Below are positions 14,279 through 19,661 of a DNA stretch of 32,000 nucleotides, one piece after another. Position 1 is the stretch's first letter; each line of letters begins with the position of its first letter. This stretch comes from Gemmata obscuriglobus (GTDB lineage Bacteria > Planctomycetota > Planctomycetia > Gemmatales > Gemmataceae): positions 1,020,001-1,052,000 of the forward strand of contig NZ_CP042911.1 in assembly GCF_008065095.1 (NCBI RefSeq). Direction: 5' to 3'. A program made the position numbers and the translations under genes. The notes beneath the pieces are model-generated. The model made no database searches, was not told where the DNA came from, and saw only the letters and a program-made list of their open reading frames with translations.

Positions 14279-14306
14279 TTGACGGATGGGGGTCGCGAGC
14301 TAAGAT
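14279..14306 (+). promoter_or_regulatory. candidate rRNA promoter (sigma-70 type)
   Basis: TTGACG (14279-14284), 16-nt spacer, TAAGAT (14301-14306). An A-rich stretch GAAAGAAAAG lies just upstream, about 175 nt before the 23S processing stem. Pattern match only. Confidence 0.4.
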
Positions 14307-14482
14307 GATCGGAGTGACGCAAACGCAACGCGGGTAACGAGTTGCGACGCGAAAAGTTGGTCCGGCTCGCTCGATCAGGGCGGCCGAACCATTCGGGTTC
14401 CGGAAGCGGCTCGTGAGGGCGGCGGACGGGGCTCAACAAGCCGGTAAGACGGCCAGTGGCAGGTGGTGTGACCTCCTGCCGA

Positions 14483-14522
14483 GACGGTCTTTGACAACGT
14501 GGTGAAGCAAGTTAAGTTGCAT
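14483..14522 (+). other. 5' strand of the 23S precursor processing stem (partner 17536-17576)
   Basis: Three helices verified by hand: 14483-14488 with 17571-17576 (6 bp); 14494-14508 with 17548-17562 (15 bp perfect); 14514-14522 with 17536-17544 (9 bp including one G-U). Together they bracket the whole 23S gene. Confidence 0.65.
14488..14497 (+). promoter_or_regulatory. boxA-like antitermination element upstream of 23S
   Basis: TCTTTGACAA resembles the E. coli rrn boxA core (GCTCTTTAACAA). An identical decamer recurs upstream of 16S at 17810-17819. Confidence 0.5.
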
Positions 14523-14753
14523 CTTCGTCGGTGCCGCTTGCGGGTCGTCTGGGTGTGGCGTCGCTCCTTCGGGTGCGGGGTCGGGTCCGGCGGGTTGCGG
14601 GTGGCGGCGATCAGTGACAAGACGAGACACGAGCCTTAGAAGTGGTTGAGATAATCGTCACCCGTGGCACATATCGGTGCCACGGGTGACACTAGTGGTG
14701 ATGCTCGACGAACGGTACCCGCTTGCCGGCGGGTGCGGTGGTCTGGGCAGTGC

Positions 14754-17501
14754 GGCCAAGCTAGTAAGGGCGTGTGGGGGATGTCTTGGCACCAGGAGGC
14801 GAAAGGGCGTGGAAGACTGCGAAAAGTCCGGGGGAGTTGTCAAACGAACTTTGATCCCGGAATACCCGAGCGAACGCAGGGAACTGAAACATCTCAGTAC
14901 CTGTAGGAGGAGAAAGAAACCTCGATTCCGTCAGTAGCGGCGAGCGAACGCGGAGCAGCCCAAACCGGGGGTAACACCCCGGGGTTGTAGGACCACGTTT
15001 AGGATCCATGAGTCCAAGCTGAAGCGTCTGGAATGACGCGCCGCAGGGGGTGAAAGTCCCGTAAGCGACTGGACGAGTGGCCGAGTGGTATCCTGAGTAG
15101 GACTCAACACGTGAAAGTGAGTCCGAAGCGGCGGGGTCCATCCCGCAAGGCTAAATACTCCCTGGTGACCGATAGCGTAGAGTAGCGCGAGCGAACGATG
15201 GGAAGAACCCCGACAAGGGGAGGACACTGAACCTGAAACCACATGCCTACAAGCGATCGGAGCCCTATGCGTCAGCAGGGTGACGGTGTGCCTTTTGCAT
15301 AATGATCCGGCGACTTACCGTAACCAGCGAGGTTAAGGGCCTTTGGTCCGGAGCCGAAGCGAAAGCGAGTCTTAAACGGGCGTCAAGTTGGGTGCGGTAG
15401 ACGCGAAACCACGTGACCTACGCATGGCCAGGATGAAGTGGGGGTACAACCCCATGGAGGACCGAACTCATTTGGGTTGAAAACCGATGGGATGAGCTGT
15501 GTGGGGGAGTGAAAGTCTAATCAAACGTGGAGATAGCTCGTTCTCTCCGAAATAACTTTAGGGTTAGCGTTCGGATAGTTGGCCGTGGGGGTAGAGCGAC
15601 TGATTGCGAACGGGGGCCTACCCGGCTACCCGTCGCAGCCAAACTCCGAATACCGCGGTTCAAGTCCGGGCAGCTAGACGGTGGGGGATAATCTTCATCG
15701 TCGAGAGGGGAACAGCCCAGATCGCCCGCTAAGGTCCCAGAGTCGTGCTCAGTGCGAAAGGAAGTTGGGCTCCGGAGACAGCCAGGATGTTGGCTTAGAA
15801 GCAGCCACCATTTAAACAACGCGTAATAGCGGACTGGTCGAGGAGCCCTGCGCCGATAATGAACGGGACTCAAGCACGACACCGAAGCGGCGGGTGCAGC
15901 GATGCACGGTAGGAGAGCGTTGGGTGTGCGGCGAAGCGGTACGGGCAACGATCCGTGGAGCGCACCCAAGTGATTATGCCGGAATGAGTAGACGATAAAA
16001 CGGGTGAGAATCCCGTTCGCCGTAAGCCTAAGGGTTCCTGGGGAAGGTAAATCCGCCCAGGGTTAGCCGGTGCCTAAGGCGAGGCCGAAAGGCGTAGCCG
16101 ATGGGGAGCAGGTTAATACTCCTGCGCTCCTCGCGTAACACGGGACGCCGGTCCGAAGCAGTGTAGGCTAATTAGATTGCCTCAGGGCGCTTATGATCCC
16201 GATATCTGCTGAGGGCCGGCCGAGAAAACCGCGCGAGAAACCGTACTAAAACCGACACAGGTAGGCGAGATGAGTATTCTAAGGCGCTCGAGAGAACGCT
16301 CGTGAAGGAACTCTGCAAGTTAAACCCGTAACTTCGGGAAAAGGGTTGCCCACGCGAGTGGGCCGCAGTGAAAAGGTTCTGGCGACTGTTTACTAAAAAC
16401 ACAGGTCTGTGCGAAGGCGTAAGCCGCGGTATACAGACTGACGCCTGCCCGGTGCTGGTAAGTTAAGGGAGAGGGTTAGCCGCAAGGCGAAGCTCGCAAC
16501 CGAAGCTCCAGTAAACGGCGGCCGTAACTATGACGGTCCTAAGGTAGCGAAGTTCCTTGTCGGGTAAGTTCCGACCTGCATGAATGGCGTAACGACCGGA
16601 ACACTGTCTCCACGAGCGACTCGGTGAAATTGTAGTTGTCGTGAAGATGCGACATACCCGCAGCTAGACGGAAAGACCCCGTGAACCTTAACTGCAGCTT
16701 GGTATTGGGTTTAGACCCAGCATGCGTAGCGTAGGTGGGAGGCTATGAGCGGCGCATCTCGGTGCGCCGGGAGCCAACGATGAAACACCACCCTTGCTGT
16801 GTTTGAATTCTAACCCGTCGTGTGGAACGACAGGGACCGTGCTAAGTGGGCAGTTTGATTGGGGCGATCTCCTCCTAAACGGTAACGGAGGAGTGCAACG
16901 GTACCCTCAGCCCGGTTGGCAATCGGGCATCGAGCGTAAAGGTATAAGGGTGCTTGACTGCGAGCCCGATGGGGCGAGCAGGGACGAAAGTCGGCCTTAG
17001 TGATCCGGTGGTCCCGGATGGAAGGGCCATCGCTCAACAGATAAAAGGTACTCCGGGGATAACAGGCTTATCTCCTCTGAGCGTTCATAGCGGCGAGGAG
17101 GTTTGGCACCTCGATGTCGGCTCATCACATCCTGGGGGTGGAGAAGCTCCCAAGGGTTCGGCTGTTCGCCGATGAAAGTGGTACGTGAGCTGGGTTTAGA
17201 CCGTCGTGAGACAGGTCGGTCCCTATCTGCTGTGGGCGGAGGATACTTGCGGGGCTTTCTCCCTAGTACGAGAGGACTGGGAGGGACACACCGCTGATGT
17301 TCCAGTTGTGGCGCTAGCCGCACCGCTGGGTAGTCACGTGTGGACGGGATAAACGCTGAAGGCATATAAGCGTGAAACTTCCCCCTAGATCAGGTATCCC
17401 GCGCGAGCGAAGGCTCCTCGTAGACCACGAGGTCGATAGGCCGGACGTGTACGCGTGGCAACACGCTCAGCTAACCGGTACTAACAGCCGACCGCTTGGC
17501 C
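14754..17501 (+). rRNA. rrl: 23S ribosomal RNA
   Basis: The 5' end GGCCAAGCTAGTAAGGGCGTGTGGGGGATGTCTTGGCACCAGGAGGCGAAAGG aligns to the bacterial 23S 5' end. Landmarks: GAACTGAAACATCTCAGTAC at 14881, GGGATAACAGGC near 17056, AGTACGAGAGGAC at 17265. The 5' GGCCAAGC pairs with the 3' GCTTGGCC (helix 1). Length is ~2.75 kb, and ends are approximate to a few nt. Confidence 0.95.
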
Positions 17502-17848: not shown

Positions 17849-18021
17849 TTAACGCCGTTGAGTAGGTGTTAACTCCATCTCGGATCGGATCACAACGAAC
17901 GAGCTCCGCCGCGAGGTGGGGTGCGTGCGGTGTGATGCGGTCCAAGACTGAAGTCGACACCGAACAACGGCCGGATTGAACTCGACCAAGTCGCTGCCGG
18001 GTGACTGGCAGTGCGAAAATT

Positions 18022-19521
18022 AACTTGAAGGGTTTGATTCTGGCTCAGAACGAACGTTGGCGGCATGGATTAGGCATGCAAGTCGGGGGAATCCCGCAAG
18101 GGGGAACCGGCGTAAGGGGCAGTAAGGCATGGGTACCTACCCGGGGGTTCGGGATAGCCATCAGAGATGGTGGGTAATACCGGATGACCTCGTGAGAGCA
18201 AAGATTCATCGCCCCCGGAGGGGCCCATGTGATATTAGCTAGTTGGTGGGGTAACGGCCCACCAAGGCGAAGATGTCTAGCGGGTGTGAGAGCACGACCC
18301 GCGCCACTCGCACTGAGACACTGGCGAGACACCTACGGGTGGCTGCAGTCGAGGATCTTCGGCAATGGGGGCAACCCTGACCGAGCGATGCCGCGTGCGC
18401 GATGAAGGCCTTCGGGTTGTAAAGCGCTTTAGTGGGGGAGAAAAGCCGAGAGGTGTGATCTATCCCAAAAATAAGCTCGGGCTAAGTTCGTGCCAGCAGC
18501 CGCGGTAAGACGAACCGAGCGAACGTTGTTCGGAATCACTGGGCTTAAAGGGCGCGTAGGCGGGCTATCAAGTCTGGGGTGAAATGCCGCGGCTCAACCG
18601 CGGAACGGCCTCAGATACTGACGGCCTGGAGGGAGGTAGGGGCATGTGGAACTGTAGGTGGAGCGGTGAAATGCGTTGATATCTACAGGAACTCCGGTGG
18701 CGAAAGCGACGTGCTGGACCTCTTCTGACGCTGAGGCGCGAAAGCTAGGGGAGCAAACGGGATTAGATACCCCGGTAGTCCTAGCCCTAAACGATGGGTA
18801 CTAGATAGTAGACCAGATATGGGTTTACTGTCGAAGTTAAAATGCTAAGTACCCCGCCTGGGGAGTATGGTCGCAAGGCTGAAACTCAAAGAAATTGACG
18901 GGGGCTCACACAAGCGGTGGAGCATGTGGCTTAATTCGAGGCTACGCGAAGAACCTTATCCTGGACTTGACATGTGCGAAAGCGCTCGGCAGTAGGACCC
19001 GGAAACGGGAACGGACCCCAGCAATGGGGGGACCGAGCACAGGTGCTGCATGGCTGTCGTCAGCTCGTGTCGTGAGATGTCGGGTTAAGTCCCATAACGA
19101 GCGAAACCCTTACCTTTAGTTGCGACCCACAAGGGCACTCTAGAGGGACTGCCGGTGTCAAACCGGAGGAAGGCGGGGATGACGTCAAGTCCTCATGGCC
19201 TTTATGTCCAGGGCTGCACACGTGCTACAATGGTGTACACAGAGTGAAGCGACTCTGCGAAGAGGAGCCAATCACAGAAATTACACCCCAGTTCAGATCG
19301 CAGGCTGCAACTCGCCTGCGTGAAGCCGGAATCGCTAGTAATCGCGGGTCAGCAACACCGCGGTGAATGTGTTCCTGAGCCTTGTACACACCGCCCGTCA
19401 AGCCACGAAAGAGAGGGACGTCCGAAGCCACCTTCACCGGTGTCGAAGACGGACTTCTTGATTGGGACTAAGTCGTAACAAGGTAACCGTAGGGGAACCT
19501 GCGGTTGGATCACCTCCTTTC
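18022..19521 (+). rRNA. rrs: 16S ribosomal RNA
   Basis: The 5' end is AACTTGAAGGGTTTGATTCTGGCTCAGAACGAACGTTGGCGGCATGGATTAGGCATGCAAGTCG, with planctomycete-type mismatches to primer 27F. GTGCCAGCAGCCGCGGTAA lies at 18490. The 3' end is GTCGTAACAAGGTAACCGTAGGGGAACCTGCGGTTGGATCACCTCCTTT. Length is ~1500 nt. Confidence 0.95.
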
Positions 19522-19619
19522 TAAGGATACTGACACACAGGTCGTGTGGCTCGAGCACCACCGACCACATATCACCCCGCCTCACACAGACCGCACGCAC
19601 CCACTTGCCAACGATATAC

Positions 19620-19661
19620 CCGCGACCCCGATGCAGAAATGCACCGGGGTCGCGGCTTTTT
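19620..19661 (+). terminator. intrinsic terminator after the 16S 3' processing strand
   Basis: CCGCGACCCCG (19620-19630) pairs with CGGGGTCGCGG (19645-19655). An inner TGCA-GAAA-TGCA extends the stem to a GNRA-type tetraloop. It is followed by CTTTTTGCGTTTCGTT. Confidence 0.7.

Follow-up and report, generated by a model that had tools for sequence, protein, structure and literature searches.

Linked 23S-5S-16S genes, a probable operon, in Gemmata obscuriglobus

A stretch of 32,000 nucleotides (nt) of Gemmata obscuriglobus DNA (the window; contig NZ_CP042911.1, positions 1,020,001 to 1,052,000 of the forward strand) holds a set of ribosomal RNA (rRNA) genes in which 16S comes last, behind 23S and 5S. 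It is proposed that this locus is probably a functional, linked Gemmata rRNA operon with the 23S-5S-16S order typical of its lineage, and that it most likely forms a single transcription unit. A sequence-only reading of the same DNA had taken it for a linked but reversed arrangement that may be co-transcribed; that view is supported by the recurrence of the order in other assemblies, the missing promoter ahead of 16S and the covarying hairpins of the spacer between 5S and 16S. Gene calls made with Rfam covariance models over the window are as follows:

14754..17503, + strand, 23S rRNA gene (RF02541, 2565.6 bits, full-length model)
17599..17706, + strand, 5S rRNA gene (RF00001, 76 bits)
18022..19520, + strand, 16S rRNA gene (RF00177, 1406.5 bits, full-length)

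By Rfam coordinates, the three genes lie on one strand with spacers of 95 nt (23S-5S) and 315 nt (5S-16S), and 16S starts 519 nt past the end of 23S. The coordinates, strand and order of the sequence-only reading agree with these models within 1-2 nt, and its gap of about 315 nt between 5S and 16S is 315 nt by Rfam. The spacers had also been described as free of tRNA; ARAGORN finds no tRNA gene in the whole 32-kb window, and Rfam models run permissively over the leader and spacers return the 5S and no other RNA.

Recurrence of the gene order among Gemmataceae

Species-representative genomes were scanned with a planctomycete 16S 5' signature, which gave 120 loci. The long-read Gemmataceae metagenome-assembled genome (MAG) MFD01716.bin.3.101 carries, at locus L028, the large-subunit, 5S and small-subunit rRNA genes in the same order as the window, with a 5S-16S spacer of 326 nt and a 16S gene only 84.7% identical to that of the window. 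Metagenomes were searched for contigs in which the boxA-like motif described below comes 93-153 nt after a 5S 3' motif. Of the 23 contigs returned, 17 carry 23S, 5S and 16S in the permuted order, one holds 5S-16S, two run from 23S through 5S to boxA up to the contig end, and three are chance matches without rRNA. Recurrence thus totals 21 independent assemblies (L028 and 20 metagenome contigs), the outcome of a comparison across other Gemmataceae that had been proposed earlier. The linked 16S genes of the metagenomes belong to Gemmata-like and Urbifossiella-like clades, one Fimbriiglobus-like lineage and an uncultured clade, and the linked arrangement spans clades down to about 80-85% 16S identity. 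The Urbifossiella-like linked 16S genes share 97-99% identity with the 16S of a MAG in which the copy sampled is unlinked. The canonical 16S-23S-5S order occurs in none of the sampled Gemmataceae-like loci and was seen in outgroups only. The 16S pattern had no match in viral contigs, and spurious open reading frames (ORFs) in or across the rRNA genes, used as contig queries, returned only contigs below 2.7 kb and no complete genomes.

The 23S gene of the window has 2750 nt; the L028 copy exceeds it by 116 nt and the Rfam model by 175 nt. The shortfall against L028 is made up of six small deletions of 9-33 nt (for example around 14870, 16231 and 16360), which presumably fall in variable helices.

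A conserved structured spacer between 5S and 16S

Behind the 5S gene of the window stand three hairpins and a boxA-like motif:

17717..17748, + strand, hairpin H1, directly after 5S (RNAfold); the hairpin is conserved in linked spacers with different sequences
17755..17771, + strand, hairpin H2, CACTC-TGATGAG-GAGTG; the pattern CACYC...GRGTG is kept across 13 linked spacers, 95% of cells being paired
17776..17799, + strand, hairpin H3, GCTCGACCG-GTCAAA-CGGTTGAGC, 10 nt ahead of boxA in a boxB-like position
17810..17819, + strand, boxA-like motif TCTTTGACAA of the 16S leader, invariant in 14 of 14 aligned Gemmataceae leaders

The window shares a homologous H1-H2-H3-boxA architecture with other linked operons. 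Over 13 linked spacers, 88.5% of the cells of H1-H3 are paired, against 30-43% with slid partners; compensatory changes occur in 15 of 21 pairs, and none of 500 shuffles reaches any of the observed measures. H1, which is the hairpin after 5S already noticed in the sequence-only reading, is paired in 83-91% of cells, with compensatory changes in 7 of its 9 pairs, and H3 shows such changes in all 7 consensus pairs, the 9-base-pair helix of the window being shifted by one register relative to the consensus. This covariation and pairing therefore point to selection at the RNA level across the whole 5S-to-boxA spacer. H1 is not a canonical terminator, because no T-run follows it in the window; nor is there a consistent T-run after H1 across the linked loci.

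The earlier reading had also raised a weak sigma-70-like match within this spacer, TGGACG-17-TACACT at 17730-17758, from which 16S might be transcribed independently. The sequence is present, but it was rejected as the likeliest 16S promoter: it matches 8 of 12 consensus positions, is unconserved and overlaps H2, in whose 5' arm the candidate -10 element (TACACT, 17753-17758) lies. A start about 7 nt past TACACT would exclude the H2 5' arm from the RNA and therefore conflicts with the conservation of H2 as a hairpin. A possible homology of H2 with the hairpin that opens unlinked leaders (CCACTGC...GCGGTGG) was weighed and set aside; the two differ in their distance to boxA.

In six linked loci (L122, L124, L127, L129, L130 and L141) a run of 5-6 T lies directly 3' of the 5S terminal helix, ahead of H1, as in GCCGGCTTTTTTGA and GCCGGAGTTTTTCGATC; the window is without such a run. 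These T-runs might be terminator remnants of a once independent 23S-5S unit, or pause sites.

Promoters of linked and unlinked 16S genes

Some 40 Gemmataceae-like 16S genes are unlinked, since neither 23S nor 5S occurs in the 1-7 kb available upstream of them. The best sigma-70 match (of 12) within 200 nt upstream of boxA was compared between 41 unlinked and 22 linked genes. At least 10 of 12 positions match in 34 of the 41 unlinked Gemmataceae 16S genes, typically as TTGACA-16 to 18-TATnAT, and in none of the 22 linked 5S-to-boxA spacers, where the median is 6-7 (Mann-Whitney p = 2.6e-10). The best matches of the linked spacers are not positionally conserved. The decamer TCTTTGACAA itself is found in all 22 linked spacers; boxA lies about 185-290 nt ahead of 16S in the leader alignment of Gemmataceae, and homology of linked with unlinked 16S leaders starts at about this motif.

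Common to the unlinked promoters is a T-rich UP-like block, TTTCCCnTTTTTT, which precedes the near-consensus TTGACA by about 12-25 nt. Examples of the block are seen in unlinked L004, L036, L054, L046, L099, L088 and L097, and block and near-consensus promoter together make up a signature of rRNA promoters across the family, in genomes whose guanine plus cytosine (GC) content is 60-70%. In a Gemmata-like subset of the unlinked promoters the initial transcribed sequence, TCCCCTACCACTGC...GCGGTGG, is conserved as well.

Both kinds of copy occur in one MAG, MFD01716.bin.3.101, which holds the linked L028 and the unlinked L073. The two are near-identical from boxA on; upstream of it, L073 has TTGACG-17-TATTAT and L028 has 5S and hairpins. 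In Gemmata algarum JC673, the source of the 16S gene closest to that of the window (99.3% identity), a 1749-nt contig (L068) begins exactly at boxA and ends 36 nt past 16S. The start at boxA has the look of the edge of a repeat whose copies sit in different surroundings, and the contig itself seems to be several 16S copies collapsed into one, with flanking sequences that part at boxA. Coexistence of linked and unlinked genes in G. algarum is implied by this edge.

The leaders of the same pair are less alike than their genes: across the 214-nt leader, L068 and the window are only about 89% identical, against 99.3% for 16S. The description of G. algarum likewise gives 99.3% 16S identity to G. 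obscuriglobus UQM 2246T, with 95.5% to G. massiliana and 95.8% to G. palustris.

One of the unlinked 16S genes, L099 (MAG Planctomycetia bacterium PMV_1_maxbin.004, JAKEEV010001286.1), is interrupted by a group I intron at 273-515 on the minus strand (Rfam RF00028, 72.1 bits, full model); its 16S is 94% identical to that of the window. Group I introns are uncommon in bacterial 16S genes.

Leader, processing stems and terminator

The remaining elements of the operon lie upstream of 23S and around both large rRNA genes:

14279..14306, + strand, candidate operon promoter TTGACG-16-TAAGAT, 9 of 12 consensus matches
14483..14522, + strand, 23S processing stem, 5' strand, pairing with 17536-17576 (Watson-Crick core)
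14488..14497, + strand, boxA-like motif TCTTTGACAA of the 23S leader, the same decamer as the Gemmataceae 16S-leader motif
17536..17576, + strand, 23S processing stem, 3' strand (Watson-Crick core with the 5' strand)
17809..17848, + strand, 16S processing stem, 5' strand, pairing with 19576-19615 (Watson-Crick core)
19576..19615, + strand, 16S processing stem, 3' strand (Watson-Crick core with the 5' strand)
19620..19661, + strand, intrinsic terminator of about -31 to -33 kcal/mol, made up of a GC-rich hairpin (19620-19655) and the T-run TTTTT (19657-19661)

The candidate at 14279-14306 had been called the only strong promoter-like site. The site is present, but it is not alone in its strength: TTGACG-18-TACGAT at 13855-13884 scores equally (9 of 12). 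The sequence just ahead of 14279 has a GGG context and, at about 14256-14266, an A-rich UP-like block (GGAAAGAAAAG), like the context of the conserved promoters of unlinked Gemmataceae 16S genes, and the rival site is without an A/T-rich block. Four promoter-like sites occur in 8 kb against 1.9 +/- 1.3 expected, which is not significant on its own, and on the plus strand between 14306 and 19661 there is no promoter-like site of at least 9 of 12. The loci of relatives had at most 221 nt upstream of 23S, too little to reach a counterpart of either site. The decamer TCTTTGACAA, present in both leaders, resembles the boxA antitermination element of rrn operons, and a role in antitermination may be suggested on this likeness.

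The intergenic region 13776-14166, which separates a transglutaminase-like gene from the rrn promoter, shows about 77% conservation in L149 and L150, the two closest relatives. The 13855-13884 site, which has a TG, lies within it, and a minus-strand ORF at 13814-14209 (131 amino acids, no Pfam match) overlaps it. The region may serve as a second rrn promoter farther upstream, contain a small gene or have a regulatory role.

The long stems that the sequence-only reading drew around 23S and 16S are real, in that their cores exceed the shuffle maxima. Around 23S, 15 nt of the 5' flank (14494-14508) form perfect Watson-Crick pairs with 17548-17562, whereas 300 shuffles gave no run longer than 11; around 16S the perfect run is 14 nt (17817-17830 with 19594-19607), against at most 12 in 300 shuffles. 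Both lie within the longer imperfect stems described earlier. For 16S, the longest complement between leader and trailer stands at the same place, with a different sequence, in about 10 other Gemmataceae loci. Other measures of the stems were tried and set aside: whole-flank RNAduplex energies were nearly equal for shuffled flanks in this GC-rich sequence, a cross-pairing control with RNAduplex, in which the 23S 5' flank was matched to the 16S 3' flank, gave scores as good as those of the true pairs, and a helix score allowing G-U pairs and mismatches was equally uninformative. Because duplex energies and the tolerant helix score did not discriminate, strict Watson-Crick runs and positional conservation were adopted. 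The terminator that had been proposed downstream of 16S is present as described, and an equivalent hairpin with T-run lies 130-145 nt past 16S in L028, L125 and L137 and was not seen in L139; a strong post-16S terminator is thus found in the window and in three of the four other linked loci with enough trailer.

Genomic context

Proteins flanking the operon are 78-80% identical to their counterparts in Gemmata sp. G18, in SH-PL17 and in a third Gemmata genome, of 10.09 Mb. All three share, in syntenic arrangement, the upstream cluster of CP_ATPgrasp, Alpha-E and transglutaminase-like genes, and in none of them does an rRNA gene lie within 10 kb after it. Synteny ends right after the transglutaminase-like gene (window about 13775/14279), from where each genome continues differently, with DDE transposases at the breakpoint in two of the three (L146:11455-12333 and L147:12440-13360). 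Given this break without rRNA in three Gemmata genomes, the position of the operon is therefore labile within the genus. Short-read contigs of the closest relatives share the intergenic sequence and break at window-equivalent positions 14166 and 14046, before the putative promoter.

Elsewhere in the window, two very long ORFs overlap on opposite strands, 5183-9793 (-, 1536 amino acids) and 6650-10111 (+, 1153 amino acids). The plus-strand ORF matches a 1155-amino-acid protein with Bact_transglu_N, Transglut_core and DUF2126 domains at the same place in relatives, and the minus-strand ORF is probably a high-GC artefact.

Proposed transcription and origin of the operon

We propose that RNA polymerase would start at a sigma-70-type promoter about 450 nt upstream of 23S, for which 14279-14306 is the best candidate, pass the boxA of the leader and transcribe 23S and 5S. 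It would then read through the structured spacer of about 100 nt (H1-H3) into the second boxA and 16S and stop at the intrinsic terminator at 19620-19661. The stems flanking 23S and 16S would be cut in the manner of RNase III, releasing the precursors. Co-transcription of the three genes and cleavage of the stems by RNase III are both predicted here from sequence and conserved structure.

For the origin of this arrangement, a secondary re-linkage of the unlinked planctomycete state may be envisaged, in which the 23S-5S unit came to stand where the 16S gene would have had its promoter and the first part of its leader, as far as boxA. Re-linkage would suit a sample in which unlinked copies predominate and leader homology breaks at boxA. 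A more specific version is offered tentatively, with slightly less than even confidence: that an unlinked system was re-fused, so that 16S came to depend on read-through and the three-hairpin spacer serves as a hand-over for processing and antitermination, and that such operons are kept throughout Gemmataceae beside unlinked copies with promoters of their own.

Alternative explanations

Several points weigh against transcription of the locus as one unit. The case for it draws on conserved RNA structure and on the lack of any promoter that can be recognised; promoters for another sigma factor, or weak sigma-70 promoters, are possible in the linked spacers, two of which reach 9 of 12 (the window spacer has 8 of 12). 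H2 is conserved mostly in sequence, with one covarying pair, and could be a site acting at the DNA level; H1 could be a partial or factor-dependent terminator. At the other end of the operon, the 23S promoter matches at just 9 of 12 positions and has an equal-scoring neighbour at 13855. The metagenome counts, finally, measure recurrence and not frequency, because the search pattern selects positives (a 5S motif, then boxA).

The main alternative is that of two adjacent units, in which 23S-5S, read from the upstream promoter, ends or is cut at H1 and 16S is transcribed from an unrecognised promoter in the spacer or in 5S; the linkage would in that case be physical only. It would fit the stable hairpin directly after 5S, the T-run beside the hairpin in some linked loci (such as L028, GTTCGATTTTCAC, and L122), the sigma-70-like match at 17730-17758 and the fact that most Gemmataceae 16S genes are transcribed on their own. 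We nevertheless find it unlikely: the window has no T-run after H1, the strong matches that mark 34 of 41 unlinked leaders occur in no linked spacer, and what matches there are do not keep their position. The candidate -10 in the window moreover lies in the 5' arm of H2, so that a start downstream would drop this arm, yet H2 and H3 are conserved structures.

An assembly artefact, a false join between a 23S-5S unit and a 16S gene that are both repeats, is suggested by the multiple rRNA copies of Gemmata and by the short-read contigs of relatives that break at the borders (L068, L149 and L150). It can hardly be entertained seriously. The junction is not a misassembly, because the same order was recovered from the long-read MAG and, across many samples, from 20 independent metagenome contigs, with a homologous spacer architecture that carries a conserved structure specific to the lineage; the window itself is part of a contig of 8,998,893 bp. 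It is also very improbable that the window holds a decaying, non-functional copy left by a rearrangement in a cell that relies on its unlinked genes. Such decay would be in keeping with a chromosomal position that is not kept in the three other complete Gemmata genomes and with the transposases at the equivalent place in two of them. Against it, each of the three genes scores highly against its full-length model, nothing is missing from the processing stems, boxA motifs or terminator, 16S shares 99.3% identity with a sister species, and the arrangement has been maintained across clades at about 80-85% 16S identity. The functional operon read from 23S through to 16S remains the explanation that we favour.

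Comparison with known rRNA operons

In the canonical rrn operon of Escherichia coli (e.g. rrnB), the order is 16S-tRNA-23S-5S, with boxA in the leader and the spacer, flanking stems and a terminator at the end. The operon of the window is similar in being compact and on one strand, with boxA before both large rRNAs, stems flanking them and a terminal intrinsic terminator. It differs in that its order is circularly permuted, with 16S last and no spacer tRNA, and in that the spacer between the two units follows 5S and not 16S.

In Planctomycetes, 16S is reportedly found apart from 23S-5S (Liesack and Stackebrandt in 1989 and Brewer et al. in 2020 are said to have described this), and the criterion of Brewer et al. 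for unlinked genes is said to be a 16S-23S distance of more than about 1.5 kb. The window falls outside such a definition, with 16S 519 nt past 23S and the family 16S promoter absent. Compared with the unlinked planctomycete genes, its 16S leader from boxA on, its processing stem and its terminator are homologous; it differs in standing 315 nt behind 5S, without the promoter conserved in the unlinked copies.

The closest precedent comes from the species itself. Franke et al. reportedly described in 2018 linked G. obscuriglobus operons ordered 23S-5S-16S, coexisting with unlinked genes, and Gemmata sp. SH-PL17 is said to show the same order in that work. The window agrees with those operons in order, in the use of one strand and in the presence of unlinked copies in the lineage, with no difference in kind. 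The novelty of the order implied by the sequence-only reading is not borne out, since the order is reportedly already documented for the lineage and for G. obscuriglobus itself. Beyond the order, the present comparison contributes the loss of the 16S promoter, the spacer hairpins, the boxA motifs in both leaders and the breadth across Gemmataceae.

Elsewhere, the order 23S-5S-16S was given in 2014 for three genomes of SR1 (Absconditabacteria; Camanocha and Dewhirst, PMC4192840). The order is the same as in the window, and SR1 belongs to an unrelated phylum (Patescibacteria, or candidate phyla radiation), so that its order is presumably of independent origin. Frigoriglobus tundricola is reported to have a canonical 16S-23S-5S operon together with an unlinked set (PMC7534041).

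With the arrangement in the literature for Gemmata and, independently, for SR1, the finding opens no new question; the comparative evidence does yield a testable prediction, namely read-through from 5S into 16S with no internal promoter. In practical terms, primers and pipelines that assume 16S-internal transcribed spacer-23S fail on 23S-5S-16S operons. Gene order in rRNA operons determines which subunit RNA is synthesized first and how the amounts of these RNAs are coupled, and a 23S-first, 16S-last operon alongside unlinked copies is a natural experiment on how important the near-universal 16S-first order is for ribosome assembly. If the proposed re-fusion is true, the possession of both kinds of copy could tune the 16S:23S ratio or serve different growth regimes.

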